DNA of 64,000 bases, taken from positions 2,784,001 through 2,848,000 of the forward strand of contig OZ244799.1 in NCBI GenBank assembly GCA_965219955.1, read 5' to 3'. Made by a program: the position numbers and the translations under genes. Of this stretch, positions 15,220-57,917 are shown in pieces. This stretch comes from a bacterium. GTDB taxonomy: Bacteria > UBA8248. The stretch's first letter is position 1. Each line of letters begins with the position of its first letter. Below the pieces are notes generated by a model. It worked only from the letters and a program-made list of their open reading frames with translations, did no database searches and was not told where the DNA came from.

Positions 15220-15231
15220 CCTGAGGTAATC

Positions 15232-23506: not shown

Positions 23507-25587
23507 AACCAGTCCGGCGTGCGGGACCCGGCCTCTTCGCCGTCTTCGCCCCGGTTTTGCTCATCGTCATCGGCCGCACCGGCGTCGTCCCCATCCGCGG
23601 GGTGGACCACGGGTTGCGGCGCCCCAGACTTTTCGGAGGTTTGATCGGGTCCTGCCAGGCCTGAGTCCGGCGGCGGAGCAGGTCGTTCACACTCCACTTC
23701 CGCCCCACCGTTTGCGGCCGTATCGCCGGGCGATTCGGGTTCCCGCCGATTCGCCGCCTCACCGGACTCAGGCACCCTCCCGGACTCAGGCATGTTCCCG
23801 GTATGAAAGGGTTCGGTCCCGGCGCTTTTCGCTCCCAAGACCGGCGCATTCTCCCTCGGCATGAAACTCTCGGCCGATTTCGGCCTTTTCACGTAGTCGA
23901 GCTCGATGCGGGCCACCGGCCAGGGACCGGGGAACTTGAGGTAGCCGTGCAGATTCTCGAGACGCATGATCTCCGAAGGCAGCGCGAGGGGCCGCATCTC
24001 GCGGCGCTGGGTGAGCGATACGCCGTCCCTCATCGCGCTCGCGCCGTAGCTGAGCCCCTCCGCGTACTCGGTGACCTCGCCGCGCCCCAGGCTCTCGGCC
24101 GACCAGCGCGCCGTCTCCTGGTCGGGCGCGGCCAGCACCACACGGGTGCCGCACAGGCCCGATACGGTCTCGGCGCCGTTTCGCCCATAGAGATCGCGCA
24201 AGGCGGAGATCACCTGGATCCCGAGCACGAAACACCCCCCGAACTGGCGCGATTCGGCGAGACCGGGTTGCAGGCTCGGCACCTGGTGGAGGGTGGGAAG
24301 CTCATCGAGCACAATCCATATCCTGCGCGCGTCGTCCCGGCCGAGTGAGAGGAGCGCGTTCACGGCGATCTCGAGCCAGGTCGAGATGAGGCCCCGGAGG
24401 CTCGCGTGCTGGTCACCGCGGGAGGTCAGGAACAGGAAACCGGTTTCGTCCTCTCGCTCCACCCACTCCCGGATCGAGAACGGCTTGCCTGAGTCGAGCA
24501 GGCATTCGAGCGCGCCCAGGTGCGCCGTCAGCATCGCCCGCACCGAGAGCGCGGTCTTGGGGTTCTCGGGGTCCACGATGGACTGCGCCACCGTGCCCTC
24601 CATGGCCTCGGCCAGGGAGGTGAGTTCGGTCTTGAGCAGGTGCTCGACGAGTATGCGGTTCTCCGTCACGCCGCGCTTCCACAGGACGCCCGCGCCGTTC
24701 GCGAACAGCTGCCGCGCGGCCGTGACCCAGAAGGGGTCCACCGTGTCCTTCTGCTGGGGTATCAGGGCGGCGGCCATCGTGTCGAAATCCCTGGGCGTCC
24801 TGGCTTCCAGGAAGGGCGACCACCGCGGCGCGCGGGCGTCGAGGGGATTCATCAGCACGTCGCGGGCGGGGTCGAAGAACGCCCGCGTGTAGCTCCCCAT
24901 CTTGTCGTAGAGGATGCAGCGCTCGCCCCGCTCCCTGATCTGGGCGACCAGGTCCGAGATCAGGACGGTCTTTCCCGAACCCGTGGTGCCCGAGACGATG
25001 GTGTGCTGGGTCTCGGCGCGCTCGGGCCAGGGGACGCCCGCGATGCGGGGTCTGGACTTGCGCGCCTTCGGAAAGAATTTTTCAGCCAGGCGGGAGGAGA
25101 GGGGCCGGACACGTCTCCCGAGCGACTGGGCCGATGTCATCTCCGCGCCCCGCACCCTGTGCGCGCGGGCCATGCGCCGGCCGAGAATCCAGAAGAAGAA
25201 CGCGAACAGGGCCACGCCGCACAGGCCGAGCCAGAGGCCCAGCCAGGCTTTCGAATGAATGGTGGCGAGCATGCGCCTCCTGATGCGCTCGATCCTGGGA
25301 TCGCTTGCGATGAGAGATATCCGCTCGATCGTCCGCTCGCCCGCGCCCCACTCGTAGACCTGGCCCGAATCGGGGGAATATCCGATGCCGAGCTTGGCCT
25401 CGGCCAGCGTGCCCAGGCCAATGACGCGCCACTCGTGCGCGCTCGTCGTGGTGAAGACCGTGATCGCGGGCGTCAGGACGACAGTCAGGACGAGTCCAAA
25501 AATTCCCCAGCGCGCGAGCTGGCCCCACATCCTGGCGTCGTGAAGCAGGGTCTGGCCGCCGCGCAGGGTGGCGTTTCCGATGGTCAT
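23503..25587 (-). CDS. traD: Type IV coupling protein (TraD/TrwB family)
   Basis: AAGGAG RBS before ATG 25587; two N-terminal TM segments; GTTGSGKT Walker A; WIVLDEL Walker B; ESRQFGG; acidic tail; stop overlaps relaxase start. Confidence 0.93.
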   Translation of the reverse strand: MTIGNATLRGGQTLLHDARMWGQLARWGIFGLVLTVVLTPAITVFTTTSAHEWRVIGLGTLAEAKLGIGYSPDSGQVYEWGAGERTIERISLIASDPRIERIRRRMLATIHSKAWLGLWLGLCGVALFAFFFWILGRRMARAHRVRGAEMTSAQSLGRRVRPLSSRLAEKFFPKARKSRPRIAGVPWPERAETQHTIVSGTTGSGKTVLISDLVAQIRERGERCILYDKMGSYTRAFFDPARDVLMNPLDARAPRWSPFLEARTPRDFDTMAAALIPQQKDTVDPFWVTAARQLFANGAGVLWKRGVTENRILVEHLLKTELTSLAEAMEGTVAQSIVDPENPKTALSVRAMLTAHLGALECLLDSGKPFSIREWVEREDETGFLFLTSRGDQHASLRGLISTWLEIAVNALLSLGRDDARRIWIVLDELPTLHQVPSLQPGLAESRQFGGCFVLGIQVISALRDLYGRNGAETVSGLCGTRVVLAAPDQETARWSAESLGRGEVTEYAEGLSYGASAMRDGVSLTQRREMRPLALPSEIMRLENLHGYLKFPGPWPVARIELDYVKRPKSAESFMPRENAPVLGAKSAGTEPFHTGNMPESGRVPESGEAANRREPESPGDTAANGGAEVECERPAPPPDSGLAGPDQTSEKSGAPQPVVHPADGDDAGAADDDEQNRGEDGEEAGSRTPDWL

Positions 25588-26094
25588 CCGCTTCTCCTTT
25601 TTCATACTGTCTGCATGGTGGCGCCGCGGGCGTCCTAGCCTCCCCGGAAGTTCTCCGTCCCAGAGAGGACGTCTGCGCACGAAGCGTGCTAGAGCACGGC
25701 TGTCATGTTGATGCGCGAGATTTTCCTGGGGGAGTCACTTGCCGGCCTCTCCCGGGTGGGGTGGAGACATGTTCGGCCAACCGATCCCTGGCGACTATGC
25801 CGGACGGCTTGCGAGCCGGGTCTGGATGCTGCGTCTCGATTGACAGGCCGGGGTGGTTCCGGCGTGGACTTCGATCGTATTCATGTATACGAATATAATA
25901 CGAAAATATTTCGCCGGCAACAGGTTTTAATAGGTCATATCCAACAATTTTGCTCCAAATACGCTCACACTTGCGATTTGGTGCTCAGGGACGTGACAAA
26001 AAAGTGAGAAAACGCGATGGAAGAAGACTATAGAGAATCGCTCCGGCGCGAACCGCCGGTCGCCGTCTGACGTGACGAATGTGCGAAACGTCCG

Positions 26095-31879: not shown

Positions 31880-32030
31880 TGGATCTCCGTGCCCATGACG
31901 TGGAGTTAAAAACCGTGTTTCGTCAGGTCGATGCCTATAATGTGGATTTGTTCCATGGACAAACCTCCTTCCGGGTGGTAACGACACCACCTCACCATAG
32001 TGTGATGTCCTCGGGAGGGCGCGTCCATCC
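31880..32030 (-). pseudogene. IS110/IS1111-family left end and transposase N-terminal remnant
   Basis: GGATGGACGC... end, GGAGG RBS, ATG 31956: MEQIHIIGIDLTKHGF*LH. Confidence 0.75.
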
Positions 32031-32054
32031 TTTCGTTTACCGGCACGCACGCGC

Positions 32055-32217
32055 CAGGATACGTAGGAGTTATAATTCATCCGTTTCCGATTTGATTACA
32101 TTCTGCAGAAACTGGCTTGAAAACGAGAAAGAAAACATTGAACTATCTCCAATAAAATTAACGCGATATCGAAGTATCCCAGTCGTCGACAATCCCCCGA
32201 TGTCTAAAACGGGCGGA
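32055..32217. repeat. ~160-bp dispersed element, copy 1 (att/res-like)
   Basis: GGATACGTAGGAGTTATAATTC, TTTGATTAC at 32091, GTCTAAAAC at 32202; spacing conserved with the other copies. Confidence 0.8.
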
Positions 32218-32496
32218 AGCGCCAAAAGGCAATTTGATCGAGGTGTATGTGAGGCTAAGAAAGATTTTTGTGGTCTGTTTGCATGGTTTTCTTGAAGTGG
32301 AGCAGACCATCTCATCCGACATCCAGATGGGATGGGCCTTGAAAGATCCAACGCATCTTTCGATTTAAAAGCGAGATTTTGCGAGTTATTGAGGCTTGAT
32401 TGATTAAAAACAATACCTTGGAATCATTAGACTAAGTCAACGAAACACCTTATGCCTCTGATGCGTTGAACTCCAGATTCCGAGGACTGGCAACGA

Positions 32497-32642
32497 GATG
32501 GATGCCTCCTCCCGACAACACCAAACTGTGACGAAGTGACTTCGCTTGCCGTCCTAAAGGAGGCATCCATGGCACAAGTTAGCATAGTCGGGGTCGCCCT
32601 GGAGAAACAGAGCTTCCAATTCCACGGTGCGCGCCCGAAACG
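32497..32642 (+). pseudogene. Second IS110/IS1111 left end and N-terminal remnant
   Basis: GATGGATGCC... end, GGAGG RBS, ATG 32569: MAQVSIVGVALEKQSFQFHG. Confidence 0.7.
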
Positions 32643-32802
32643 TGTCGAATTTGGCCAGAATGCGCATGGCTTCCAGAGGTACCTTCACTATGATCGGATG
32701 CCCTGCGATGGCCTCTTCCAATATTCTCTCGCGAAAGGTAAAAAGATTGCGTGGCATAGCGACACCTAACGGTTCCTAATTGGTAAAAGGCGGGATTTCA
32801 TA

Positions 32803-34029
32803 ATGGCGATTTCCACCGTAGCTGAGTTTCTCGAATGCATCGAGAGAAGCAGAAGTGACGACGAAACAGAACTTCTGTACCGTGGACAAGCCGACGCCAA
32901 ATGGATCGTGGATTGTTCTGCGGTGCGTCGACTCAGAGCCGATCATAACTTTGCGATTGATTCAACACTCATCGGGCACGCTTTGGTCGGATATTTGGAT
33001 GACCTGTTGAACAAGGCGTCACAATATGTCGGTAAGTGCCCGGAACTACCCGGAGGGTGTACCGATCTTGAAGTCCTCGCCCAGCTCCAACATCAGGGAG
33101 CAGCCACCGGACTAATCGACTTCACCTTGGAACCACTCGTGTCCCTCTGGTTCGCGTGCAGTGGGTACCCAACCGAAGACGGTGCGGTGTACGTCCTCTC
33201 CCGCTCCGACGTACAGGAAACAGATGAAGCCGAAGTTCGGGAAAACGGGGTGCTGAAATACTTTTACGGAGCTGGCACAAAAGACTGGGACGATCCTCCC
33301 TACCTGTGGTGTCCTGGTGCGATGTACGGAAGACCCGCTTCCCAAGAATCCGTCTTTATTCTGGGGGTCCCGTTTCTGTGGCCTGCTTTGCTCAATAAAA
33401 TAGTGATTGACAAGAATTTCAAGCAACCTTTACTCGAAGAGCTACGTATCGCACATGGCATCGCGGAAGAAAAGCTGTTTCCCGATCTCTCCGGTTATGC
33501 ACACGCCAACTCGGTCTCCAAACCCTTCGACATGAAGCGCTTTATTCGGTTTTGGGAAAATCGAGTAGAATGGTTTACGAACAACGCAGAGAAAGCACAA
33601 GCGTATGTCGACTGTGGGCTTGCCCACGCCGCAATCAAGCAATACGAGTTTGCCATTGAACGGTACACCGAAGCGATCACTTTTGACGCTGAGAATATAG
33701 GAGCCTACGTCAATCGTGCAAGAACGAGGCAATTGCTTGGCGACCAGACGGAAGCTCTCGCGGACTACAACACAGCGCTTCTAATGTGCGGAAGAGCGGA
33801 AGGACTTGATTCCCGGCAAATCGCTCGTGTCCACTGGAATAGAGGCCAGGCGTACTTTGCATTGGGGCAGGAAGAACAGGGTTGCGCGGACTACAATCGG
33901 GCAATAGGGCTTGGACACAAGTTGTACTTCTACGACAATGGTAAAGACGGAGCACGAATAAATGCCCACCCAGAGTACCTAGAAGAGTATAAGCCATTTA
34001 CCAATGGTGAAGACAGGTCCACGAAATAA
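32803..34029 (+). CDS. FRG domain protein with C-terminal TPR repeats
   Basis: LYRGQAD..W, QHQGAATGLIDFT..PLVSLWFAC, SQESVF, LFPDLSG; three TPR-like motifs (AYVDCG, AYVNRA, HWNRGQAY). Confidence 0.88.
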   Translation: MAISTVAEFLECIERSRSDDETELLYRGQADAKWIVDCSAVRRLRADHNFAIDSTLIGHALVGYLDDLLNKASQYVGKCPELPGGCTDLEVLAQLQHQGAATGLIDFTLEPLVSLWFACSGYPTEDGAVYVLSRSDVQETDEAEVRENGVLKYFYGAGTKDWDDPPYLWCPGAMYGRPASQESVFILGVPFLWPALLNKIVIDKNFKQPLLEELRIAHGIAEEKLFPDLSGYAHANSVSKPFDMKRFIRFWENRVEWFTNNAEKAQAYVDCGLAHAAIKQYEFAIERYTEAITFDAENIGAYVNRARTRQLLGDQTEALADYNTALLMCGRAEGLDSRQIARVHWNRGQAYFALGQEEQGCADYNRAIGLGHKLYFYDNGKDGARINAHPEYLEEYKPFTNGEDRSTK

Positions 34030-34336
34030 TTCGTGCGTATGTTGGGTCCCTTCGGCATTGTGTTTCTGTATGGCTTCCTTGGCTATCACTTCAAGAAAGT
34101 TCGGCAACTGGGGTAATGGACGACCAACACCTGAGCTATGTACTTAAGCGTGACAGCGTGGTTCGCCGCTTTCAGTTTTCAGCAAGGAATAGCTACAAGG
34201 GGATTCGAGTCATGAAATGTCCGACGTCGTACTAGGGTAGCCTGATCCGTTGCTCCACGGACCTCATGTCCGCGGCAGCCGCGGTCCTAGTGGTTATCAC
34301 AGCCCCTTTCTTACTCTCTTGAACAGGAGAACCAAC

Positions 34337-34696
34337 ATGAAGTCGCCTATTCGATCCGCAATGCTCAGCATCATGGCGCTAGCGCTTCTCACGGCTTGTA
34401 CCGCCGATATGAAAAATGAAAATGGGCGACTGACCGTAGAGTCACAGGCTCCTTTTATTGTTCCTTTCGGATTATTGCTGGCTTCTACACATACGGCAAT
34501 ACAGGCCGAGTGCAATGATATAAAAAGAAGAACAACAGATTCTGGCCCAGGCCAAGGACATGCACTTGCGCCGGATTACCAAAAGGTCACGGAATGGACC
34601 ACAGCCATTAAAACCTTCTTTGGTTTGCTTCCTATCAATGAATATAAATGGGTTGGAGAATGCGATTACGAGGGAGAGACCGCTAAAGGGAATTGA
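34337..34696 (+). CDS. Small lipoprotein of unknown function
   Basis: AGGAGA RBS, ATG 34337, lipobox LTA-C, two further Cys. Confidence 0.7.
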   Translation: MKSPIRSAMLSIMALALLTACTADMKNENGRLTVESQAPFIVPFGLLLASTHTAIQAECNDIKRRTTDSGPGQGHALAPDYQKVTEWTTAIKTFFGLLPINEYKWVGECDYEGETAKGN

Positions 34697-34699
34697 GTG

Positions 34700-34912
34700 A
34701 TGAATTACAAGGTTACATCTAAGAACAATAGGAGCAATACTATTAAAGCTAACGATGTTCGTATGCGGTTCATCGACTCAAAGCTTATGGTTGTTTTTCT
34801 GTTAGGAAGTCCTAGGCAAATTCAAATGGAAGGAGCACAGGTAAAAGCGATGTTTGAGTTCGACAATATCAAAAGCGTTGTGAGGGAGCAAATGCGAAGC
34901 TCTGACAAATAA
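34700..34912 (+). CDS. Small hypothetical protein
   Basis: Starts directly after the lipoprotein stop. Confidence 0.4.
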   Translation: MNYKVTSKNNRSNTIKANDVRMRFIDSKLMVVFLLGSPRQIQMEGAQVKAMFEFDNIKSVVREQMRSSDK

Positions 34913-35684
34913 GCGCTCCCACTAGGACCGCAATCCCCGGCGGGAGCAAACCACGAGAACACATACCTTCACCACAAAGGAGTAAGACCATGTCACATTT
35001 CAATGCTCGTGTCCTCGCGGTCCAAAAGTGTTCTATCTAAAACATCCCTCTCAAGATCCGCAGTTCCTACACGGATCCTCCCGATAATCAATGAGCGTCC
35101 CGTTTCAGCTTGAGCATGGCTCATCCGCGACCTTCTCCACGTTATAAACGGGTGACTCATGTTCGACCACTTTGACGAAAGAGTAGCGGGACCTAGCGTG
35201 CTCGAATGCGCGCTCGCAGGCATTCTCGTGAGCCGAGAAGGTCGTGATTTGCAGCAGATACCCGCCGTCGACGGCAGCTTCTACTCACCATTCTTCGCCT
35301 AGGTTTTGAACGATCCTGTAAGGGAAGTCGTCGGTAGGCTCATGGATAGCTTCTCTTGGGGGCTCAAGTTTGAACACCTTGGCATGGGTTTTAAGTTTGC
35401 CCATGAGGAAATACTTAGCTAGCTAGGTCAAAAGACCCATAGTATCGATTTAATATGAACTTGATGTGCCTTTTGCGGTGTTATCATGGTTTAAATATGA
35501 CCATTCATGGCGCGGGCGTCATTTCCCGCGGCCTGGAACTCGTAAGCGGTCGATCTGTAAAGTCCGGTGAACTATTCGACGAGGAGACGTAGTGATCGAT
35601 CCATATCCACCGAATCCCGAGGCGAAAGCGTTCAGGCGGTGCATCTCAACGCTCAGCATGTCCATCCCATCGGTTACGATTTGC

Positions 35685-35902
35685 GGCCTGTTAGGAGGGG
35701 TCGTTGCCGAGCCCCTCCTAACAGGCCCGACTTGCCCGCCCTAGGATACGCAGAAGTTTGATTTCGCCCACTTCCGATTTGATTACGTATTGCAGATAAG
35801 CAAATCCCCAACGAAATTCCCAAAAACGGATACCCGCAATAATATCAACAAGCTACAAGAATTCCCCACCCGCTGGAAACAACCCACCGTCTCAAAACAC
35901 GC
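35685..35902. repeat. Dispersed element, copy 2, with preceding 16-bp perfect hairpin
   Basis: GGCCTGTTAGGAGGGG-N11-CCCCTCCTAACAGGCC (35685-35727); GGATACGCAGAAGTT; TTTGATTAC 35778; TATCAACAAGCTA (IHF-like); GTCTCAAAACAC 35889. Confidence 0.8.
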
Positions 35903-36304
35903 GGCAACAACTCCGAGCGAAAGCACCGCCCCGCCCCCGACCTGTCCCGCGTCCGGGGAACACCAATCCGCACCGCACCGACACCCGTCAAAACCTCCCG
36001 CGACGGCAGGTAGCCGCCCAGCACCACCGCGCGACGGCCTCGCGTGTCTCGCTCGGTAGAATGCTCTTCCAGAAAGGTCCCCAACTCCGCTTCCACCGCC
36101 CGGCGGATGATTCGCTGCGCGCCTTCGCGCACCAGTTCGCTCAACTCCTCTCGAAAGGCTGGATTCGTAAAGGGAATCGTCGTATCTTTGTGCATGGTGG
36201 CGCATCTCCTGTTTGCTGAATGACAGGGCTTCTCACAACCCCATTCCAGCAGGAATGCGCCGCCTTCTTCAATTCAACCCATACACAAGATCTGAGGGTA
36301 ACTC
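35900..36304 (-). mobile_element. Truncated IS256-family element (left end plus about 98 N-terminal codons)
   Basis: End GAGTTACCCTCAGATCTTGTGT (from 36304); ATG 36195, LSELVREGAQRII..AVEAE...GYLPSREVLTGVG..VPRTRDR...FRSELLP then break. Confidence 0.85.
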
Positions 36305-36322
36305 CATAATATAGTGTCCTCC

Positions 36323-38227
36323 CTAAAACGCCCCGGTGACGCCGACGAGGAAGACATCGGAGCGCGCCGAGGCGTCACTGTGCGTTTGGTCCGGCATTAT
36401 CTCGCCGTTTTCGTCCTTGATGTTGCCGCCGCTGATGAAGTTCAAGGGTGTGTATCCATCGACACGGATGTATTCGGCAAAGAGCTTCACGCTGGGCCGG
36501 GGCAACCAGGCCACGCCCAGGGCAAGCTGGTTCTGGCGCTCCCACGGCGCGTCATCCGGACCGGCGACGAATCGGCTGAGTTCGATGGAAAAATCCAGAG
36601 GGCCGCGACTGGAGTCGTACCTGTATCCGGCCCCGACCCTGAAGCTCGTCACCTTGCTCGCCGGGAATTGCGGGATGCCGGGGTTGAATGTAGCGGGCCA
36701 CTCATTCAGCGTACGGATGAACTCGCCCCCGATATTGAGATTGCCATGGACGAGTTTTCCGTAAACGCCTGAAGCCGGGTTGTTGTCCTTGCAGGGCGCG
36801 AAATGAACAACCGGAAAATCCTGGCAATAAGCCGTCCCGCGCAGGTATGACCCTCCCAGGAGAAACGTGCCCCAGGAAGCGAGTTCTACCGTGTAGTTCG
36901 CGTCGACGGTGAAGTTGTTCAGTTTGCTCGGGACCGCGGTTCCGTTCACCGGGGTGTTTGCGGCCCTGAACTGCGCTCCTCCCTGCACGCCCATGAAGGA
37001 GAGGTTCAACCCGTCGCTGGAATAGCCCAGCTTCAAGCCGTTGGCCAGCCCTCCGAAGGCGTGCCAGACGCTCGAGGCGGAGAACGGATTGACGGTATCC
37101 GTGAGACCGAAGGGAATCGCCATCTTGCCCAGGCTGGCATAGAGCGGCGACCTGTCGAGATTCCCGATCAGGACCCAGGCGCGCCGCAATTGCAACTGGT
37201 TGCGTTCCAGGTCCGTATTGGTTCCCTGGCCGAAACTCTGTTGCGGATCATAGAGAATCTCGGCGTTGGCGGTAATCCACCCGCCGAGCGCACCCGTGAA
37301 TCCGAGTTGCGCCGAATGGATCGCCGCCTCGGAAACCACGGTCCCCGCCTGATTCTTTGCGGTCGGGTGGCGCATCAGGTATCCGAACTTGTTCTCCCTG
37401 TTGCTCGACTGGTAATCGGCTATCGCGGTGACCGCACCGTGCAGGTGAACGCTGTCCGGGGCGAGTACGCCCTCTTGCTTGCGCTGGAGTATCAGGCGTT
37501 GCTTGGAGTTGATGTTCGTCGTCGGGTCGAGGATCTCGTAGCCGAATTGCGGGTCGATCTGGATGAATCCGGTTTTGGCTCTGACGGGCGCTGCCTCCCT
37601 CGCGGATACATCCACTGACAGGTCGCCCGAAGCGTAGCGGACGAAGCCGCCCGCTTCCACTTGCGCGGAGCTCCCCTCGAGCGAAGGCGTCAGCACGAGG
37701 TTCTCCCCGAAGCGCGAAGAGCGTGAGCTTTCGGGCGGTGCGCGAACGCGGCTTGCATCCCCGTCGACTCCGGGCAGGCCCGGCGCCGCCTCGCCGGTAT
37801 CCGCCGGCGTCGTGGCCGTGGCGACCGCAGAGGGAGGCCCCGCTCCCGACTCGCCGACCGCCGAGACGCGGTAGTGGTACGTCGTGCCTCCCGGGAGGCC
37901 CGAGTGCCTGTACTCCGTGTCCCTGACGCCCGTCTCGGGGACAAGGTCGCTCCAGCCCGCCTCCTCTTCGCGGACCTCTATCCGGTAGCTCAAGAACGCC
38001 GATTCGCTGACCGAAGGTGCACGCCAGGACAGGAGGATGACCGAAGGCCCCTCCGCCCGCGCCGTGAGGCCGCCGGGCACGGTCGCCGCCGTGCCGTTGA
38101 ACAGAGTGGCGGCCTCGGTCCCCTTGCTCCATACTTCGATGACGGCCTGGGCATGGGCCAGCCCGGCGGAGGCCGGTGCCATGACGGCGAGGAGGACGAG
38201 ACACGCCGCGAGACTGCTCCACCACAA
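36323..38227 (-). CDS. Secreted fibronectin type III domain fused to a porin-like outer-membrane beta-barrel
   Basis: Signal peptide ending AHA; FN3 VPGGLTA...LSWRAP...YRIE...GLPGGTTYHYRVSAV..GAGPPS; alternating beta strands; terminal Phe (VGVTGAF); start uncertain. Confidence 0.75.
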   Translation of the reverse strand: MWWSSLAACLVLLAVMAPASAGLAHAQAVIEVWSKGTEAATLFNGTAATVPGGLTARAEGPSVILLSWRAPSVSESAFLSYRIEVREEEAGWSDLVPETGVRDTEYRHSGLPGGTTYHYRVSAVGESGAGPPSAVATATTPADTGEAAPGLPGVDGDASRVRAPPESSRSSRFGENLVLTPSLEGSSAQVEAGGFVRYASGDLSVDVSAREAAPVRAKTGFIQIDPQFGYEILDPTTNINSKQRLILQRKQEGVLAPDSVHLHGAVTAIADYQSSNRENKFGYLMRHPTAKNQAGTVVSEAAIHSAQLGFTGALGGWITANAEILYDPQQSFGQGTNTDLERNQLQLRRAWVLIGNLDRSPLYASLGKMAIPFGLTDTVNPFSASSVWHAFGGLANGLKLGYSSDGLNLSFMGVQGGAQFRAANTPVNGTAVPSKLNNFTVDANYTVELASWGTFLLGGSYLRGTAYCQDFPVVHFAPCKDNNPASGVYGKLVHGNLNIGGEFIRTLNEWPATFNPGIPQFPASKVTSFRVGAGYRYDSSRGPLDFSIELSRFVAGPDDAPWERQNQLALGVAWLPRPSVKLFAEYIRVDGYTPLNFISGGNIKDENGEIMPDQTHSDASARSDVFLVGVTGAF

Positions 38228-38629
38228 GGTCAGGGGCCGCCGGTCGGGGGGGATACAGGCGGGTGTTCGGCTTCTTCGGTCTCGAGCCCCTCGATGAACT
38301 CGGGACAGGCTCTGCCGATGACGAGGGAGCCGGCTTGCGCACCCCGTTCGGGCGCTGCGCGCTCATGCCGCCCTCTTCTTCCAGATGACAGACTATTGCC
38401 GATGCCGACTCCGGTTGCAAGCCCCACCAACCTCTCCACGCGATGTCTCATTTCTGAATCTACTTTTCCCGGTATTGCGAGGGAGCCGGACCAGCGGTTC
38501 CCCTCCCCATGGAACGTCTATTCATTTTTTGCTTGAAGTTTACCAAAGTCATATGTATTTATCATATCTATACTCTTGTTATATATATCATTAACATATA
38601 TAATTCTGTTTTCCGCCCGGGAGGCAGGG

Positions 38630-38715
38630 ATGATGAACGGAAGCGAAGAGGAGGGGCGCATCTCGCGGCTGTGCGCGGCGTCGGCTACACGATGCCGGAG
38701 CCGGGCGAGGGGCAG
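38630..38715 (+). pseudogene. Extreme deletion relic of a hybrid sensor/OmpR-type regulator gene
   Basis: Start (MNGSEE..RISRLCAA) and end (RGVGYTMPEP) match the longer relic at 41231-41580. Confidence 0.6.
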
Positions 38716-39070
38716 CGGTCACGACACGGTAACGATTCGGTGGCAGTGTGATGGCCACGCTGAAACCGGCGGCTGCATGAAGTATGGTCCGAAAGGAGTC
38801 AGACCAGCGCCCTCACCACTTCGGCAGTGGCAGGAGATTCAGGCGTCCCGGTGAATCAGCAGCATTCTCGCTGACCGTGGGGGACATCGGCCCGCGCCGT
38901 TGGCACTCACTCAGGAGAGTCCGTGATTCGCTCTATCACCCCAGTGGCGAACACATATATGAACGGAGTTACCGTTCAGTCGCGGGGTGATGAGCATCAA
39001 GAATTCGCCGGCCCAAACCGGATACACCATGCTATACCAATAACTGCTTCCGGGTTTTGCGCCATTATCA

Positions 39071-39264
39071 CCCCTCCTACCCGGCCTCCGACTGAGACGC
39101 TTCCCCATACGCAGGAGTTATAATTCGCCTTCTTGCGTTTTGATTACTTGTTGCGGGAATCGAATCTCCGAACCAAATTCGAAAAAAACAAATACCTGCA
39201 ACAGTTTCAACAAACTACAAGGATTCCACGGCCGTTGAAAATACCCCACTGTCTGAAAACACGC
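39071..39264. repeat. Dispersed element, copy 3
   Basis: CCCCTCCTACCCGGCC (right hairpin arm only), ATACGCAGGAGTTATAATTC, TTTGATTAC 39139, GTCTGAAAACAC 39251. Confidence 0.8.
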
Positions 39265-39295
39265 GAAAGAGGGCGAAGAACCACGCGCCAGCTTT

Positions 39296-40659
39296 TCATG
39301 TGGAACGGGTCGCCAGCAACTCCGCAACTTCTTCGGCTGCGTCGACGCCGCTGGCCAGGGCGCCGTTCACAATGGGCGACCGCATGTAGTCGCCCGCCAG
39401 AAAGAGATTCTTCACGTCCTGGTTGAGTCGAGCGCGCATATCCACTATCGCCTTGAACATGCCGGGCAGCCCCATGCACACGGCCTCTCGCCAGCGGTAC
39501 ACGCGGGTAAACAGCACCTCGTCGTCGCCGGGAAGGTTGGAGCCGGGAGGAGGGTTCCGGCGCACGTCGGCGAGCATCCGGCGCCTGATCTCCGCATCGT
39601 CGAGCGGAAGCAGTTCCTCAGCGCGGTTCTCGCCCACCCAAAGGTCCAATGTGCTCTTACCGGGCGGTGCGCAGGCGGGCAGGTTGATGGTCCGGTCCAA
39701 GAGCGCCGGGGTGTCGTCTTCGGGGTACAATGCGACAGACCAGCCGGGGGGGAGCGGCCGGTGGTCGAGGCCGACTACTACTCGAATCCCGCGCGAGTAA
39801 GTTACCTTGCCGAGCGCGTGGCGAATCCCGGGCGGCAGGTCGGGGATAAGTTCCAGCGCCTTCGTGGCTTGCACGGCGCAGATGACGGCGTCCGCCTCGA
39901 TGAGGCCGGCGTCGGTGATCACGCCCGTCACGATCCCGTCCCGGATGACCACCTGCCTGACGGGCGTCGAGAGGCGAATATCGGCTTCCGAGGCGTCGGC
40001 CAGGGCGTAGGACAGGGAACTGCAGCCCTCCTCCGGCACGTAGAGCTGCTCGGGTTTCAGCAGAACTTCTCCCAGAAATGCCCGAATCCACGTCGCGCCG
40101 AAGTCTTCGGGGTTGCCCATCGTCAATTCCAGGAACCCCTCCAACGTCACCCTCAGAGACTCGGGAATACCAAGTCTGTCGAGGTAGTCGCCGTAGGTCT
40201 CTTCCCCGTCGAGCTCGGCGATTTTGTGGTCGCTGGAGTAATTCAGGTACTCCGAATCGTCCTTGATGCTCTTGACCAGCTTCAGGGTCGGCCACAACCC
40301 CCGAGGCGACAGGAACTCTAACGTCCAGAACGGCGCCAGGTTGCTGATGAAGTCGCCGAGGGATTCAATCGGCCTCGTCACAACCCATCGACCCTTTCTG
40401 CGCCAGTCGATGTTCATCTTCGTGCGAATCAAGGGTAACCCCAACTCCTCGCACAAGCGAAATGCGACGTCGTAACAGGCCGGGAAGAAGTCCGCGCCCG
40501 CATCCACCGAAAAGCCATCCACCCTGTCGCCGCCCATGCGTCCGCCTATCTGGTCGTTGGCCTCGAGCAAGATGGATTCGATGCCGCGTTTCTTGAGCGT
40601 GTACGCCGCGCTAAGTCCGGCCGCCCCCCCCCTATAATTACAACGGTATTCTTTCTCAT
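39296..40659 (-). CDS. FAD-dependent oxidoreductase (amine oxidase / protoporphyrinogen oxidase family), frameshifted in a G9 tract
   Basis: ATG 40659 MRKNTVVIIGGG/AAGLSAAYTL...LEANDQIGGR, DAGADFF, C-terminal FLAGDY..NGALASG; start is 89 nt from the long ORF, one base short. Confidence 0.85.
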
Positions 40660-40710
40660 GTAGCTTTCCTCATGGATGTAAAGTTATCGCAACATTCTTA
40701 TGGGTAGGCA

Positions 40711-40944
40711 TCATGAATGATTCCTGTCGATGGCGATCAGCGCGTTGTCGGATGAGGAGAAGGTGTGTTCCAGCGCATCGAAAGCAAGGAGGTAAGGGTT
40801 GTCCTTTTGGAACAAAATGCGGTAATCGCTCGCAACGGTGATGAATCGCCCGCCCGCTCCCGCGATGATCATCAGCAAAACGGCCAGCGTTATGATCAGC
40901 CACCAGTGGCGCAAAACGGCGTCGATGTATCGGTCCAGTTGCAC
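40711..40944 (-). pseudogene. MMPL/RND-family transporter relic (N-terminus only)
   Basis: LDRYIDAVLRHWWLII..TM..DYRILFQKDNPYLLAFDALEHTFSSSDNALIAI then stop after DRNHS. Confidence 0.7.
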
Positions 40945-41230
40945 GAGTATTATCGCATCCTCATCACGGGTAGCCCGTGAATCATGACGGACGGCATGAT
41001 TCGCTCCGGTTTGTCGCCTTTGTCGCCGCCCCCGCCGCAAGAGGTTGTATTGTTCTCCATTCAAAGGAGTCGCGGCGGGGACGACTCGCCGTCCGGATGT
41101 GGTCACCGGAATCAGCTTTCATTTTACAAAAACTTTATATCTGTTTCATATCTGAATTATTTATTTTCATATTATTATCGTGTACATTTGCGTTTTTTGC
41201 CGTATTTCCCGCTCACGGGAGGCGCTGACG

Positions 41231-41580
41231 ATGAACGGATGCGACGAGGCTTCGGAAGATCGCATACCGCGGCCGTGCGCGGTCCTTGCGCGGACCACCG
41301 CGAGCCTGGACCCCGGGACCGTGCTGCGCGAGATCGTGGAGGGCGCGGCCGACTACATCGTCAAGCCGTTTTCCACAGTGGAACTCACCACGCGGGTCGG
41401 GGCCGAGCCCTTCGTGCTCGGTGAGCTCGCCATCGACTGCGAGCGGCGGCTCGTGAGCATCGGCGGCCGCCCCGTGGAGATGACCGCCACCGGGTACGAA
41501 TTGCTGCGCCGGGTCTGGACCCGGCGCTATGACGCAAGCGCGGCGTCGGCTACAGGATGCCGAAGCTAAGCGAGGCGTAG
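41231..41580 (+). pseudogene. Internally deleted hybrid GAF sensor / OmpR-type response regulator
   Basis: ASLDPGTVLREIVEG (GAF entry helix) fused to AADYIVKPFS..EL..RV (receiver end), LGELAID..RRLV..GRPVEMTATGYELL and RGVGYRMP (winged helix). Confidence 0.75.
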
Positions 41581-41586
41581 CGGTTA

Positions 41587-41793
41587 GGCCGGGTAGGCGG
41601 GGGCATTGCTGCGCCCCGCCTACCCGGCCAAAGGTTACCCCGACAGGCACCCGCCGGGATGCGCAGGGGTTTTAATGAACCCGCTTTCATTTTGATTACC
41701 GGCCTGGCAGGAAGGATTTTCAAAAACCTCTTAACTGATATTATTACAGCATCTTACAGGAAAATCGGAACTGCTCGTGTTTCTAAGACGAAC
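41587..41793. repeat. Dispersed element, copy 4, with preceding 16-bp perfect hairpin
   Basis: GGCCGGGTAGGCGGGG-N11-CCCCGCCTACCCGGCC (41587-41629); GGATGCGCAGGGGTTTTAAT; TTTGATTAC 41691; distal part shorter and more diverged. Confidence 0.7.
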
Positions 41794-41811
41794 AAAAGCG
41801 CACTGCCTCTT

Positions 41812-41839
41812 GTAGGGACAGGTCGCGACCTGTCCCTAC
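41812..41839. repeat. GTAG-type REP palindrome
   Basis: Perfect 28-bp palindrome GTAGGGACAGGTCGCGACCTGTCCCTAC; near copy at 43867-43894. Confidence 0.85.
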
Positions 41840-41928
41840 GGACCCTCCCTCCCCGGCCAGCAACATACGCCGAATGACAAAATCAGGACTTCTTCAACAA
41901 CCCCGATTCGGTATGAAGTAGGGTAACC

Positions 41929-43782
41929 CTACGCTTTCGACTGCGCGGCGGCCTCCCTGATCCGCCCGAAATACGCCTTGGCGTCGTCGGGCAGGGAGGT
42001 GAAGCGAAGCATCAGCCGCCTCCCCTCCGCCTCCACGACCTTCGCGTAGATTTCGGACACGTCCGCCTCTTCCGCCACCCGCAGCATGAGGTTCGCGTTT
42101 CTCTCGAAGGGGGTTTCCGCCTCCACTTCTATGCAGTTCTCGGAAACCCGCCCGATGGCGGCGGCCACCACCTCATCGGACACCGTCTTGCCCTCTACAG
42201 CGAAAATCCGCGCGTCTATGGGCGAAGCGAGGTCGACGAACGCCTCGGGCGCGGTTTCCGGCATCTCGCACGCATAAGGCCCCGACATGCCCCGCACCTC
42301 GTAGACGCGAACCGGCTCCTCCAGCCCCTTGAAGCGCAGATCCTGGGTCTCACCCACCTGAACGAATTCCGCCATCTTCTGGTAAGTATCCATGCTGATG
42401 AGCACCTGCCCGCTCACGGTGTAGGACTCGATGCGGTAGGCCGTGTTGATGGCCGTGCCCATCGCGCCGTACTTGGTGCGTTTTTCCGAACCGATGTTGC
42501 CGACGATCACCTCGCCCGTGTTGATGGCGATTCCCATGTGAAGATCGGGCATGCCGCGCGCGCGCTGCTCCTCGTTGATCTCGACGAGGGCGCGCTGCAT
42601 CTCCACGGCGCAGGCCACCGCCCGGGCCGAGTCGTCGGGGGCGGCGAGCGGCGCCCCGAAGAACGCGAGAATCCCGTCTCCCTGGAACTCGTCCACCGTG
42701 CCCCTGTGTTTGGTGATGATCTCCACCATCGGCTCGAGGAAACGGTTCACGACATCGATGACTTCGCCCGGCTCAAGGCGCGAGGAGAGGGCGGTGAACC
42801 CCCTGAGATCCGATACCAGGAAGGTCACCTCGCGCACCTCGCCGCCGAGCTTGAGGCCGTCGGGCGAGTTCAGGAGCTCATCCACGATCTCCTTGCTGAT
42901 GTAGCGCCCGAAGGTGTCGCGGATGAAATCGCGCTGCTTCAATCCCTCGATCATGCCCTCGAACGAAGTGGCCAGACGGCCCACCTCGTCGTGGCTTCTC
43001 TTCTCGGGAACGGTGACGTCGAGGTTGCCCCGGCTCACCTCTTCCGCCGCGCTCGTCAGGTTCCTGATCAGGCGCAGCATCCGTGAGGAGATGAGCCAGA
43101 AGAGGATGAGGCCCAGGGCGACCAGGATGATTGTGAAGCGGAGCAGCTTGAAGGTGTTCGTCGCCACCTGCTCGGCCACGGGGTTCGCGAGCTTGTTGAG
43201 CACGAGGATGGCCACGACCTTGCCGCCCAGCTTGAGCGGCGTGTTGAGCTGCAGGAACTGGTCGAACTCGCGGTCCCCCACCTTTCCGCCGAAGAGCCGG
43301 GAGCGCATCATCTCGCCTTTGTTCCAGGTCTCGTTCGTGGCTTTGAAAGTGGCGGGAAATAACTGGTGCAAGTGGACGTCCTGACCAATCTGAAAGCTGT
43401 CGTGTCCGGCGGCGACGTATTCGTAGCTGCCGTTCGGCCGCCTGCGCATGATGATGGCGTTGTCCACGCCCGAGTTCCGCTTGATGCGCCGGAGCACGGC
43501 GAGCACTTCCCTGTACTCGGCAGTATTCTTGTCGGCGGGGATCCTCAGGCTGTGGACGGCTTCCGCGTCGATGAACGAGGTGGCGCGCTCGGCGATGAAC
43601 TCGAGTTTGGCCGAGAGCACGTTGAGCTCGTAGTTGTAGCTCGATTGATAGTAGCGATAGGACATCGGGACGATGGCGACGATGAGAATGATCAGGACGA
43701 GGATGAGGCTCTTGAAGACGATGGAACAGTAAAACCCCTGCTTGGCTGGAACTTCAGGCTCGACACTGCTGGATTGGGACAT
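41929..43782 (-). CDS. Membrane class III adenylate/guanylate cyclase (sensor-TM-HAMP-cyclase, possible PilZ-like tail)
   Basis: Two TMs, HAMP (DEVGRLATSF), FLVSDLRGFT, DEFQGDGILAFFGAP, GNIGSEKRTKY, INTAYRIE. Confidence 0.92.
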   Translation of the reverse strand: MSQSSSVEPEVPAKQGFYCSIVFKSLILVLIILIVAIVPMSYRYYQSSYNYELNVLSAKLEFIAERATSFIDAEAVHSLRIPADKNTAEYREVLAVLRRIKRNSGVDNAIIMRRRPNGSYEYVAAGHDSFQIGQDVHLHQLFPATFKATNETWNKGEMMRSRLFGGKVGDREFDQFLQLNTPLKLGGKVVAILVLNKLANPVAEQVATNTFKLLRFTIILVALGLILFWLISSRMLRLIRNLTSAAEEVSRGNLDVTVPEKRSHDEVGRLATSFEGMIEGLKQRDFIRDTFGRYISKEIVDELLNSPDGLKLGGEVREVTFLVSDLRGFTALSSRLEPGEVIDVVNRFLEPMVEIITKHRGTVDEFQGDGILAFFGAPLAAPDDSARAVACAVEMQRALVEINEEQRARGMPDLHMGIAINTGEVIVGNIGSEKRTKYGAMGTAINTAYRIESYTVSGQVLISMDTYQKMAEFVQVGETQDLRFKGLEEPVRVYEVRGMSGPYACEMPETAPEAFVDLASPIDARIFAVEGKTVSDEVVAAAIGRVSENCIEVEAETPFERNANLMLRVAEEADVSEIYAKVVEAEGRRLMLRFTSLPDDAKAYFGRIREAAAQSKA

Positions 43783-43859
43783 GCTCACGCCTCCGGCGGC
43801 GGCTCCAGAGGCCAGTATACACCACACGCGCGGGGGGAAAAGCCGAAAACATGGGGGAT

Positions 43860-44597
43860 ATCCACCGTAGGGACAGGTCGCGACCTGTCCCTGCACCGCC
43901 CCCTTTTGCCTGTGCTCACATTCCGGCGCATTCCGGAATAACGAACCAGAGCATGGGCATAGACGGGATTACCCCGCAGGGACAACCCTCCGTGGTTGTC
44001 CTTTGTCGGGGCGTCAGGACAGGCACGGAGGCCTGTCCCTACAAAAACCGCTCCTCCCCGGTCGCCTCCTCGCCTTGAAAACCAACCCCCCTACCCCCCT
44101 TGTCAGGGCTTGTTGAAAAAGCCAGAGGAGAGAGGAATCACTCCCCCCTTGAGGGTCTGGCTTCCCGAGGGGAAAGCCAGACGATGAAGCCGAGCGGTTT
44201 GTGCGAAGGCTGAATCGGTGGGGGGTGAATCGCGTTTTATCGCCACTCCGAATTATACCCCCCACCGAATCGCTTGCGGGCTTACGCCCTTAGCTCTTCG
44301 ACTCCCCCTCAAGGGGGGAGTGATTCCTCTCTCGTCGGTTGGCAATGACCCTCAAGGGGGGAGAGCGCTTCTTCTCTACTCGGTCGGGTTCGACCCGTTC
44401 CTCCTCACCCTGAGTAGCCGCCGAAGGCGGCGTATCGAAGGGCGAGGGGAATCGAACGCCGGGCGAGAGGGCATCCTTCGATACGGCGCTTACGCGCCTA
44501 CTCAGGATGAGGGGTGTCGGGGAACGGCGGAGCCTGTCCCGAGTCAAGTCGAGGGGCCGCTACTCAGGATGAGGCGCAAAGGCCTTTCCAACAACCC
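43860..44597. repeat. Mosaic of palindromic intergenic repeats
   Basis: GTAG REPs 43867-44042; CACTCCCCCCTTGAGGG...CCCTCAAGGGGGGAGTG unit 44138-44323; CCTCACCCTGAGTAG...CTACTCAGGATGAGG units; TGTTGAAAAA ends. Confidence 0.85.
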
Positions 44598-49959: not shown

Positions 49960-50142
49960 AGACTTTCCCTCCCCGGTTGGATCTATGGCCCAGTGTGCAA
50001 TCGTATTCTCTGAAATGTGGTGATGGGAAAATCATCACACACAGGTCTCGGCCCGTCAAGAAAGGAGACCGGCGACTGCCCGGAAGCACCGGCGTGCGAC
50101 GAAGTTTCAATCCGGAGCATCCGCCTCGATGGATTTATTTCC

Positions 50143-51276
50143 CTAAAGCAGGCTCACCACCCGCTCCAGTTCTTCTTCGGTATTGTAGAAATGCGGCGCG
50201 AAGCGAAGACCATTGTTGCGCGCGCTGGCGATGATTCTCTTCTCGCGCAGGCGCGCCGCCGCCTTGGGCGGGTCGGGCGACTCGATGCTCACGATGGCGG
50301 CGCGCTCCTCCCAGGGTCGAGGCGTCAGAATCTTCTCTCCCCGCCTCTCCAGCAGTTCCATCAAGTATGTCGTCAACCCCCGCACGCGCTCCTCGACCTG
50401 ATCGAGACCCACCCCGGCCAGGAACTCGACCGAGCGGCCGAGCACCCACAGTCCCAGGTAGTTTTGATTCCCGATCTCGAAGCGGCCGGCGTCCGGGATC
50501 AGTTCGACCTCCATCCGGGGGCGCGCTTCAGGCACCATGCTGGCGCGGGCGAAGAAAGGGGGCGTCATCCCGGGAATCAGGTCTTCGCGGCAATAGAGAA
50601 AACCCGTGCCCGGCAGGCCGAGCAATCCCTTGTGGCCGCCGCAGACCACGATGTCCGCCCCGAGGGCCGGCAGCGACGCCGAGAGTATCCCGACCCCCTG
50701 AATCGCGTCCGTCATCAAGACGACACCGCGCTCTCGGCAGGCCGCGCCCAGGGCGGGCAGGTCCACCCGGCAGCCGGTGCCGAAAGTCACGTAGGAGACC
50801 GCCACGACGCGCGTTCTCCCGTCCATCGCCTCGACGAACGCCTCCACGGGGGGATAGCCGTCCCGGCTTCGCACCCACCGCAATTCGACACCTCTATCCT
50901 CCAGGCGCTTCCAGGCGTACACCTGGTTCGGGTGGTCCATTTCCGCCTGGATGACGTTGTCCCCCGCCTTGAGATCGAGCGCCTGCGCGGCGATGTTCAT
51001 GCCCTCCGACGTATTCTTGATGAACGCGATCGTCCCCGGCGCGACGCCCAGCAGCGAAGCCAGCGAGGCGCGAACCTCCTCCACGCGGCGCTTGGAGAAG
51101 GCTTCCCGGACGCCGAGTTCGTTCATCTCCCGCAGGAAATCGGGGATGGCGTCCTGGGCGCACTGGGGAAGGGGCGCCTTGTTGGCGAGGTCGAGATAGG
51201 TCCAGTTCCGGGTGACGGGAAACGCATCCCGCAGCGCCGCAAAATCAGGAGCAACCGCCCCCTGTTGTTCGTTCAT
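50143..51276 (-). CDS. Class V PLP-dependent aminotransferase / cysteine desulfurase-like
   Basis: YLDLANKAP, NTSEG, DAIQGVG, GGHKGLLGLPG, RFEIG, RFAPHFYN. Confidence 0.9.
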   Translation of the reverse strand: MNEQQGAVAPDFAALRDAFPVTRNWTYLDLANKAPLPQCAQDAIPDFLREMNELGVREAFSKRRVEEVRASLASLLGVAPGTIAFIKNTSEGMNIAAQALDLKAGDNVIQAEMDHPNQVYAWKRLEDRGVELRWVRSRDGYPPVEAFVEAMDGRTRVVAVSYVTFGTGCRVDLPALGAACRERGVVLMTDAIQGVGILSASLPALGADIVVCGGHKGLLGLPGTGFLYCREDLIPGMTPPFFARASMVPEARPRMEVELIPDAGRFEIGNQNYLGLWVLGRSVEFLAGVGLDQVEERVRGLTTYLMELLERRGEKILTPRPWEERAAIVSIESPDPPKAAARLREKRIIASARNNGLRFAPHFYNTEEELERVVSLL

Positions 51277-51339
51277 CCGTTTTCTCCCGTTAGATAATTT
51301 GGTGAACCCTGATTCGGTGAATTATATACAATCCTGCCC

Positions 51340-52190
51340 GAAGGGGGTTATTGAAAAAGCCTTCTTGCGGCGCAATCCTCTTCTTCGTCCTGCACTGCCC
51401 GCCGCTCCGCCTCACCCTGAGTAGCGGCCCCTCGACTTCGCTCGGGGCAGGCTCCGCCGTCCCCACCACTTTCCTCACCCTGAGTAGCCGCCGAAGGCGG
51501 CGTATCGAAGGGCGAAGTTCGTGCCCCCCATCCTTCGATACGGCGCTTACGCGCCTACTCAGGATGAGGGTTTGGGGCGCTTGCCCGGGATGAGGGCGTC
51601 AAGGGGGGAGTGGTTCTTTTCACTCCCGTGAATTGGCGACGGCTCTCAAGGGGTCAAATCCAAACGATGTGGGAAAACCACCGTCATTCCGGCGAAAGCC
51701 GGAATCCATTTGCCTTTCGTTTTTATACTGTCATTTACGAACTGAACATCGAGAAATGGAAATACCGCAATATGCGCCCCCCGTCTCTTTTTGGATTCCG
51801 GCTTTCGCCGGAATGACGAACAAAGCCGAATCGCATCCGTAGGGACAGGCCTCCGTGCCTGTCCGAGGGGCCCTGCGCCCGTCCTGACGCGGGACTGCAA
51901 AACCTCCAGGCGGCAGAACCACTCCACCTCATCCCGAGTAGGCGCGCTCGCGCGCCGTATCGAGGGAGCGCCCCTTCGACAGGCTCAGGACAGGCCCTTC
52001 ACCCGACGCAAGATGAACCCGTAGGACCGCGTGTATGGGACCCCTGCACCAACACCTTGCGCGGCGATTGTAGGAGTCGCATACATGCGGCCCATGACGG
52101 GCGGCGAAAAAGGCCGGGTCGCATGTATGTGTGGGGCGGTCCCGAGGAGGAACCGCCACCTACAAACCCATTGCGTACCCCCCGGGGGCG
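51340..52190. repeat. Mosaic of palindromic intergenic repeats
   Basis: CCTCACCCTGAGTAG units 51410-51570; GTCATTCCGGCGAAAGCCGGAATCCA and its inverse 51683-51818; GTAG REPs from 51839 and 52021. Confidence 0.85.
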
Positions 52191-52193
52191 GAC

Positions 52194-53498: not shown

Positions 53499-53577
53499 GA
53501 AAAACCCTCCGCCTTTTTACATCTGCGGGTTGAATTCAAAATTCCCTCTCCAAAACCACTCCCTGGTGCCTGGGTTT

Positions 53578-53880: not shown

Positions 53881-53942
53881 CGGTATCCCAGTGCTGAGTC
53901 ATATATATAATCCCCAAAAGAAAGGCCCGGCAGCTAAGTGTA

Positions 53943-56837: not shown

Positions 56838-56849
56838 GAGCCTGAGTTC

Positions 56850-57833: not shown

Positions 57834-57867
57834 GGATCGCCCCTCGGTGAGACGTCAGGAAACCCGC

Positions 57868-57893: not shown

Positions 57894-57917
57894 TGAAACA
57901 CGATTCGAATACCGGGA

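Follow-up and report, generated by a model that had tools for sequence, protein, structure and literature searches.

Four diverged copies of a roughly 180-bp element lie in the 64,000-nt stretch of DNA analysed here (positions 2,784,001 to 2,848,000 of contig OZ244799.1, assembly GCA_965219955.1, lineage UBA8248), which we call the window and whose own numbering is used unless a position is given as genomic. The explanation that we favour, with a probability of roughly 70%, is that each copy is the conserved right-end attachment (att) arm, of the attR type, of a family of integrative mobilizable elements, and that the array in the window is a series of accreted junctions. Accretion is a known mode of genomic island growth, of which this array is a large example and not a new kind of system. 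A first-pass annotation of the same letters had proposed stacked att junctions of serially integrated elements, and this proposal has held up: arms stand at the right ends of islands that have tyrosine integrases at their left ends, and strain breakpoints fall at the arm's right end.

All four copies in the window are on the plus strand. Copies 1 to 3, at 32040-32225, 35727-35912, and 39088-39273, belong to one subfamily (A), and copy 4, at 41640-41798, is the terminal right-end arm of an island of ~91.6 kb. Each copy carries AT(A/G)CG (32059, 35746, 39107, and 41659) with TTTGATTAC exactly 32 nt further on (32091-32099, 35778-35786, 39139-39147, and 41691-41699), as had been noticed at first sight; TTTGATTAC is present four times in the window, in these copies only, against 0.12 expected, and none of 100 shuffles reached four. 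Copy 1 additionally shows the palindrome-like box GGAGTTATAATTCATCC. The motif GTCT(N)AAAAC, also seen in the first pass, follows in copies 1-3 at 32202, 35889, and 39251, 111, 111, and 112 nt from the start of TTTGATTAC (as GTCTAAAAC, 32202-32210; GTCTCAAAAC, 35889-35898; and GTCTGAAAAC, 39251-39260), and is absent from copy 4, whose candidate core, GACGAACAAAAG, occupies 41787-41798. As direct repeats, the copies can be aligned over ~185 nt with a mean column identity of 68%, and a repeat search gave 67-74% identity to copy 1 over 70 nt. The crossover had been placed at the quasi-palindromic box; this is an internal conserved box, and the crossover lies ~150 nt further on, just past GTCTNAAAAC, so that the crossover zone of copy 1 would be at about 32211-32219.

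Beyond the window, the arm is a dispersed family and not a local array. An iterated nhmmer profile found ~18 copies in the 4.28-Mb genome (G000), plus weak partial matches. A sequence-only covariance model (E <= 1e-5) matched 412 times in 18 of 23 same-genus genomes, with 5-51 arms per arm-carrying genome and five genomes without any. Across 42 copies the conserved boxes are the dyad-like box, CCGCTTtCGtTTTGATTAC, TaTCAA, ATTT, and the right-end motif. In two other genomes the right ends of subfamily A stop sharply at GCGGGCGRAAG, beyond which the flanks are unrelated, and some arms, as in a second subfamily (B), have a short hairpin a few bases ahead of the junction.

The distribution of the arms follows that of the integrases. 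Each of four plus-strand integrase pairs in G000 has to its right, as seen in the integrase's orientation, a group of three or four arms of like orientation, and these groups hold 13 of the 18 copies. In G034, an integrase pair at 2394199-2396548 is followed by ten same-strand arms within 43 kb (2442689-2485843); on contig C3 of G004 a pair is followed by four arms, and G008 has two runs of five. Arms and integrases were found together in 17 of the 23 genomes, neither in five, arms only in one, and integrases only in none, although these genomes are kin and the counts are thus not independent. Twice, an arm in inverted orientation was seen directly 3' of the second integrase gene (locus L054, 5522-5691; G002 contig C1, 2035911-2036091), which suggests islands abutting tail to tail.

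The right-end position of the arm is clearest where the limits of an island could be read. A contig of the related genome G003 joins genomic position 1848859 to 1951091 as an empty site, and G000 therefore has an island of 102 kb there, with intA/intB at its left and an arm at its right; its attB, attL, and attR share AATTCGAT. Two more islands, at 2561021-2644932 and 3691317-3727254 in the genome, are each bounded by the halves of a split ~165-nt repeat with an 11-nt duplication, TTTCGATAAAT, and also have an integrase pair at the left and an arm at the right, these limits being deduced from the repeat halves and not from empty sites. The core duplication is thus 11 nt at two islands and 8 nt at the third, always inside the split ~165-nt repeat, and a fifth arm (genome 296166-296333) is fused to half of such a repeat. 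Since the arm is inside the island and runs up to the core in every case, we regard it as the right arm of the att site. The target (attB), the ~165-nt repeat, has 19 copies of at least 100 nt and 56 pieces of at least 40 nt in the genome and contains two TTCGATAAAT motifs; this multiplicity explains the presence of several such islands, of 36-102 kb, in a single genome. The repeat was seen at genome 2124428-2594, 1951091, 2561021, 2644875, 3691317, and 3727200, and in locus L035. One arm (locus L012, 5010-5263; genome 4086209-4086462) ends ~10 nt from the 3' end of a tRNA-Ser(tga) gene. A tRNA target was considered and rejected, because the 26-nt repeat of the tRNA-Ser 3' end 10.4 kb away is a second tRNA gene and not an att repeat.

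The island to which the window belongs was delimited in the same way. In all three relatives examined (G002, G008, and G012), the gene of a HAMP-adenylate/guanylate cyclase and a homologue of genome 2732456-2734240 are 228-270 nt apart, and in G000 they are separated by ~91.6 kb, which is why G000 must carry an insertion of that size (genome ~2734260-2825800, of which the window holds the part at 1-41798), absent from the same place in those three genomes. The left flank is an ammonium transporter gene (genome 2732890-2734173). The right flank is the cyclase gene (41929-43896, minus strand), which was found in 18 of the 18 same-genus genomes searched and is a conserved part of the chromosome. 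REP-like repeats (resembling repetitive extragenic palindromes), an integrase leader, and intA/intB make up the left end of the insertion, copy 4 is at its right end, and the four copies occupy its last 10 kb. Past GACGAACAAAAG, the sequence matches the empty sites, including a REP-like palindrome that follows the core of copy 4 and is found in the relatives' empty sites too; a similar core is present at the left junction. The attB, attL, and attR of this island share GACGAACAAA, which lies inside REP-like palindromes, and we assign the core here tentatively. Families of such palindromes crowd intergenic regions and island junctions (41811-41841, 43865-43895, 44012-44042, 51839-51864, 53653-53685, and others), among them a GTAGGGACAGG...CCTGTCCCTAC type, a CGTCATTCCGGCGAAAGCCGGAATGACG type, and a TCACTCCCCCCTTGAGGG type.

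The integrases themselves come in pairs. G000 has six paralogous modules, each of two tandem tyrosine integrase genes, intA and intB, whose products are ~51-53% identical within a pair and 60-93% identical between corresponding genes of different modules. In the pair that was scanned, both genes encode Arm-DNA-bind_3 and Phage_integrase domains, and the pair is of P4-like type. The first-pass annotation was right that the window itself has no recombinase: there is no PF00589 match within its genomic range, the nearest being 28 kb and 47 kb before its start. The intA/intB genes of the window's island are at genome 2734889-2737222, ~47 kb ahead of the window at the opposite end of the island. 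The arm and the integrases are further tied by sequence. Weak nhmmer matches to the element, at genome 1849084 and 2734823, lie immediately 5' of intA start codons, the integrase leaders have the element's boxes in the same order, and the first ~80 nt of the arm are homologous to the intA leader. Of 24 related integrase loci in public genomes, 6 show a match to positions 2-89 of the element (E 4e-5 to 5e-4) in the 78-87 nt that precede the start codon.

Mobilisation genes are present as well, several islands having a TrwC relaxase, in some cases accompanied by a coupling protein. A TrwC relaxase gene follows the integrases in two modules, and two of the four TrwC genes of G000 are inside the window's island. 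The island's mobilisation module at 20597-25680 (minus strand) consists of a TrwC relaxase (20597-23506) and a TrwB/VirD4-type coupling protein (23503-25680), and no CagE_TrbE_VirB match, which would mark a VirB4-type gene, was found in the genome (completeness 94%). The island thus has a relaxase and a coupling protein with no VirB4 match, that is, mobilisation genes without a complete mating apparatus.

The blocks between the arms provide the strain breakpoints. Block 1 (32226-35684) encodes an FRG+TPR protein (32803-34029, plus strand) and a 148-aa open reading frame (ORF) at 34250-34696 (plus) with no Pfam match. Block 2 (35904-38289) encodes a 634-aa protein with an fn3 domain (36323-38227, minus) and, at 35845-36195 (minus), the truncated N-terminus of a Mutator/IS256-type transposase cut at the arm's end, a call resting on a weak Pfam match of 19 bits, below the cut-off. 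In block 3 the cargo is an amine oxidase gene with ~165 nt of upstream DNA (39296-40735, minus; Pfam). The cargo named in the first pass was therefore partly correct: FRG+TPR, fn3, and amine oxidase are borne out by Pfam, and the labels 'porin' and 'lipoprotein' remain unconfirmed. Two labels of our own, 'response-regulator fragment' (41180-41569) and 'RND fragment' (40711-41106), have no Pfam match behind them.

Two comparisons place breakpoints at the core. In G002, block 2 (35904-38289) is ~97% identical to that of the window but stands behind an arm only ~72% identical to copy 2, and the step from ~72% to ~97% is at about 35900-35904, immediately past GTCTNAAAACAC. On a contig from another study's metagenome (run X23), 39262, the end of an arm like copy 3, is joined directly to 35904, the start of block 2. 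Together these show the same cargo behind different arms and the same arm before different cargo. The amine oxidase gene and its upstream region are a 98% duplicate of genome 3121063-3122518, while the relatives' homologues reach only 72-78%; the homology begins 23-36 nt from arm copy 3, with the stop codon of the gene. Three more joints on metagenome contigs (38289 to 41187, 38381 to 41290, and 41586 to 39256) do not show which DNA separates their two sides. The first agrees with an arrangement like that of G002, in which ~220 nt of other DNA intervene, and we therefore do not count these joints as clean deletions. Among the matches listed, none from the relatives covers the body of block 1; the contigs of runs X1, X2, and X23 give no cover over most of 32334-35673, which says nothing about absence. 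Parts of the window region are present in sponge and coral metagenomes.

From these observations we propose how the array may have formed. The dyad-like box and the CCGCTTtCGtTTTGATTAC box in the first ~80 nt would be arm-type or regulatory binding sites for the integrases, and the AT-rich tract of ~110 nt may permit the DNA to bend. Strand exchange would occur just past GTCTNAAAAC, or past the short hairpin in the second subfamily, at a core of ~8-11 nt. Copy 4 would then be the current right junction of a composite island inserted between the ammonium transporter and cyclase genes, and copies 1-3 older right junctions that became internal when further DNA was joined at the core. The blocks between the arms would be integrase-less remnants together with captured chromosomal DNA. 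When the blocks are set against cis-mobilizable elements (CIMEs), each has a core at its left, an arm and core at its right, no integrase or relaxase, and no integrase-side arm motif.

Several observations sit uneasily with accretion of this kind. The internal copies are all of subfamily A and three of the four terminal arms are of subfamily B, which a simple model does not predict. No integrase or relaxase remnants were found in the blocks between arms, either in the window (Pfam, PF00589) or in the G034 and G008 arrays (tblastn), and the integrase-side (left-end) arm motif has one match after internal cores against 3.4 expected; simple tandem integration of whole elements followed by decay would thus need many deletions. 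The block that is shared with G002 has its far edge at 38289, off any core, and the alignment of the window's core is weaker than at the other three islands because it lies in REP-like palindromes that recur in the genome. Five of the 18 arms in G000 are in no demonstrated island, and two minus-strand integrase pairs have no partner arms. In G010, which has 12 arms, no IntA/IntB match was found at E <= 1e-60, and its arms may be orphans or may depend on a more distant integrase. Apart from these points, the intA of the window's island is frameshifted (split over two frames, genome 2734889-2735981), and the island may therefore no longer move by itself. The bare blocks, the subfamily split, the off-core edge, the unpaired arms and pairs, and an orphan arm at a synteny break (described below) allow for a cassette-like and more active role of the arms.

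On one hand, the array would in that case be a working device for gene capture instead of a collection of dead junctions. Arm plus core would be the recombination site of each integrase-less block, like attC or cer/res, and IntA/IntB would excise and insert blocks in trans; in cer/res sites, too, accessory DNA is on one side of the core. The long regular arrays (ten same-strand arms in 43 kb in G034, two runs of five in G008, four in the window) speak for it, as do the presence of 3-8 arms per integrase pair, the bareness of the blocks, the sharp boundaries between arm and cargo at GCGGGCGRAAG, the finding of one cargo behind different arms and of one arm before different cargo, and the 98% duplicate of a chromosomal gene joined to the core at its stop codon. 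If true, blocks without an integrase, newly copied host genes among them, would be stacked and rearranged and would travel with the island on its mobilisation, in a functional analogue of the integron built from lambda-type att arms instead of attC hairpins. The paired arm-binding recombinases would join arm-plus-core sites to each other and to core-like secondary sites in the chromosome. However, no block with cores on both sides was found at different array positions in different genomes, so that the integron-like mobility suggested in the first pass was not borne out, and the one shared block ends at 38289, off any core. The blocks are 1-35 kb long, of mixed gene orientation, with their own promoters and with gene fragments; the joint of 39262 to 35904 fits equally well the linear order seen in G002, and no circular junction has been demonstrated; and the intA of the island is, as said, frameshifted. 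We therefore hold an active capture platform to be possible but unlikely, whether put as a cassette system or as right ends that capture genes.

On the other hand, the junctions could be the work of the relaxases, if the arm's right end were an oriT/nic-like site (oriT, origin of transfer) and TrwC made the junctions by oriT-specific recombination or by aberrant initiation or termination of transfer. These islands contain TrwC relaxases (four in G000), and copy 1 stands ~700 nt upstream of three consecutive minus-strand genes, for a helicase, a coupling protein, and TrwC. A short hairpin within a few bases of the junction is seen in some arms, and the arm's right end presumably resembles known nic regions. 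Yet three islands have target duplications of 8-11 nt inside the split repeat, which are characteristic of integration by a tyrosine recombinase, the end motifs TCTAAGCGGGCG and GTCTNAAAACNNGCG are both missing beside all four TrwC genes (one mismatch allowed), and the left half of the arm is homologous to integrase leaders and not to relaxase-proximal DNA. A relaxase origin for the junctions is, on this evidence, improbable.

A non-autonomous repeat that spreads by itself, like a miniature inverted-repeat transposable element (MITE), and that is near islands by chance would account for ~18 diverged copies across the genome, five of them outside demonstrated islands. The first-pass annotation had named three features that would tell against its att-junction reading, and of these the genome-wide scatter is present, whereas the copies are linked to recombinases at island scale and the strain breakpoints lie at the core. 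In addition, the element has no terminal inverted repeats (its first 30 nt and the reverse complement of its last 30 nt agree at <=47%), no solo-insertion polymorphism was seen, the orientation of the arms is locked to that of the integrase pairs, and arms occupy island ends. The one orphan copy tested is at a synteny break: several relatives have its two flanks at separate loci, for example on two contigs in G016 or ~590 kb from each other in G012, and two relatives are collinear there, with the arm present. A self-spreading repeat is accordingly very hard to credit. We give as little weight to a promoter, terminator, leader, or small-RNA gene common to unrelated genes: the stretch is AT-rich and non-coding, with conserved boxes and a left half resembling a gene leader, and one terminator-like site was called in copy 4, but there is no Rfam match in the window, consensus folding of 16 sequences yields 0 pairs (of the four copies, 7 and 28 weak ones), single-strand folding is no better than in shuffles (z 0.01 and 0.74), promoter-like sites (6 against 4.9 expected) and terminator-like sites (11 against 12.1) are not enriched and include none common to the four copies, and the neighbouring genes are mixed in identity and orientation.

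Some readings of the sequences around the arms were tried and abandoned. In the first pass, the minus strand of the core was read as alternative 3' ends of a target gene, a reading that fails because the copies differ by indels of lengths not divisible by three and the element does not contain the end of any conserved ORF. A coding reading of the upstream flank fares no better, as no conserved ORF ends ahead of the arms, and hexamer (promoter) readings of the boxes were unconvincing and were dropped. IS110-type transposase N-termini were sought at the flanks of copy 1; PF01548 has no match in the window and finds 10 intact genes in the rest of the genome. A 77-aa ORF at 32536-32769 has no Pfam match.

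Upstream of the arms the sequence is heterogeneous. Hairpins with a 16-bp stem and an 11-nt loop, reported in the first pass, do precede copies 2 and 4 (35685-35727 and 41587-41629, both plus strand; folding z -7.27 and -7.2, with none of 200 shuffles as good), the first immediately 5' of its arm and with a perfect stem, the second with compensatory changes relative to the first; copy 3 retains a single hairpin arm (z -0.18), as had also been noted. The copy 2 hairpin is a separate palindromic element outside the conserved arm, and its sole genomic match of at least 25 nt is itself. Two other islands have pieces related to the copy 4 hairpin, ~1 kb and ~4.5 kb ahead of their terminal arms. A repeat also makes up the ~130 nt before copy 1 (31900-32031); it recurs at 76-80% in several genomes and ahead of the arms at genome 2608026 and 3552281, and other arms have a different upstream module of ~100 nt. 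A piece of ~400 nt beside copy 2 (35902-36305) has many copies of 80-84% identity in G000 and related genomes and is probably the end of a Mutator/IS256-type insertion sequence.

Other features of the window include a defence-like gene cluster inside the island at 6603-17994, with an SNF2-type helicase with NOV_C, a YhcG-type PDDEXK nuclease, a DUF1156 methyltransferase-like protein, and a DUF499 protein. Outside the island, a block of 11.4 kb (50075-61505) is present in G000 and partly in G011, and is absent from the site in G002, in G008 (a 19-nt empty site), and in G012. It is not bounded by arms in G000; in G002 it is elsewhere, between two arms, the first of which is followed by half a target repeat, and for that reason it is read as flank and not as a cassette. 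The stretches 61532-62226 and 63306-64000, 1774 nt apart and ~78-81% identical, resemble tandem gene paralogues.

If right-end arms accreted as we propose, the result is a working anatomy of islands of a kind that is widespread in this uncultured marine genus, with paired paralogous arm-binding integrases, a right arm of ~180 bp, and a multi-copy target, and with the crossover point located to within a few bases. Arms would then be a practical marker of island ends and internal seams in metagenome-assembled genomes, and arm counts per genome would track genome plasticity. The arrays are longer and more stripped-down than in textbook accretion and include a recently copied host gene, which makes them well suited to exploring the extent to which tyrosine-recombinase islands can gather genes.

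Among known systems, the attP sites of the phage lambda/P4 type have arm-type and core-type integrase sites. The arms described here are similar in that their boxes keep fixed distances from the core (100-150 nt, spanned by an AT-rich tract) and in that the integrases have an N-terminal arm-binding domain; judged from sequence, the presence of arm boxes in the integrase leader suggests autoregulation. They differ in that there are two integrases and not one, the right arm is repeated many times per island, and binding is predicted. The attC arrays of integrons likewise consist of ordered elements resembling recombination sites, each beside unrelated cargo and with the crossover at one end of the site. 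In contrast to attC, the element here is conserved in sequence (boxes in 42 copies) and not in structure, with no folded single-strand form; no integrase gene adjoins the array (by PF00589, with no IntI-specific model run), and the cargo is multi-gene, of mixed orientation, and often fragmentary.

Tandem recombinases have been described in other mobile elements. PMC5704250 describes integrative mobilizable elements whose two tyrosine recombinase genes stand in tandem, among them the 'Tyr duo' MTnPi1-3 of Prevotella intermedia; there, as here, a mobilizable island has an integration module made of two neighbouring genes of this kind. By the description given there, which is all that was compared, the MTnPi recombinases are distantly related, whereas IntA and IntB are paralogues, ~51-53% identical, both with Arm-DNA-bind_3. 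The strand-biased circularizing integrative elements SE-6283 and SE-6945 of Vibrio also encode two tyrosine recombinases, named IntA and IntB, and have four core genes and 19-bp terminal inverted motifs (PMC9345347); the portion of that account used here, compared by description only, describes no arm arrays.

The closest parallel is accretion of the ICESt1/ICESt3-CIME type. Accretion of integrative elements with decayed, integrase-less relatives, and their cis-mobilisation, are described in PMC5704250, which also refers to a paper with a title naming gene capture as something that follows from accretion. As presented in that source, both cases have a site-specific island with the integrase at one end, direct att junctions inside a composite island, and integrase-less segments between them. 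The arrays here are much longer (4-10 arms), and their small blocks have no recognisable remnants of an integrase, a relaxase, or an integrase-side arm. Integration is into a multi-copy ~165-nt repeat or a REP-like spacer instead of the end of a single-copy gene, and the recombinase is a tandem pair. The present case follows the same logic as accretion, and differs from it by the length and bareness of its arrays, its paired paralogous arm-binding integrases, and its multi-copy target.

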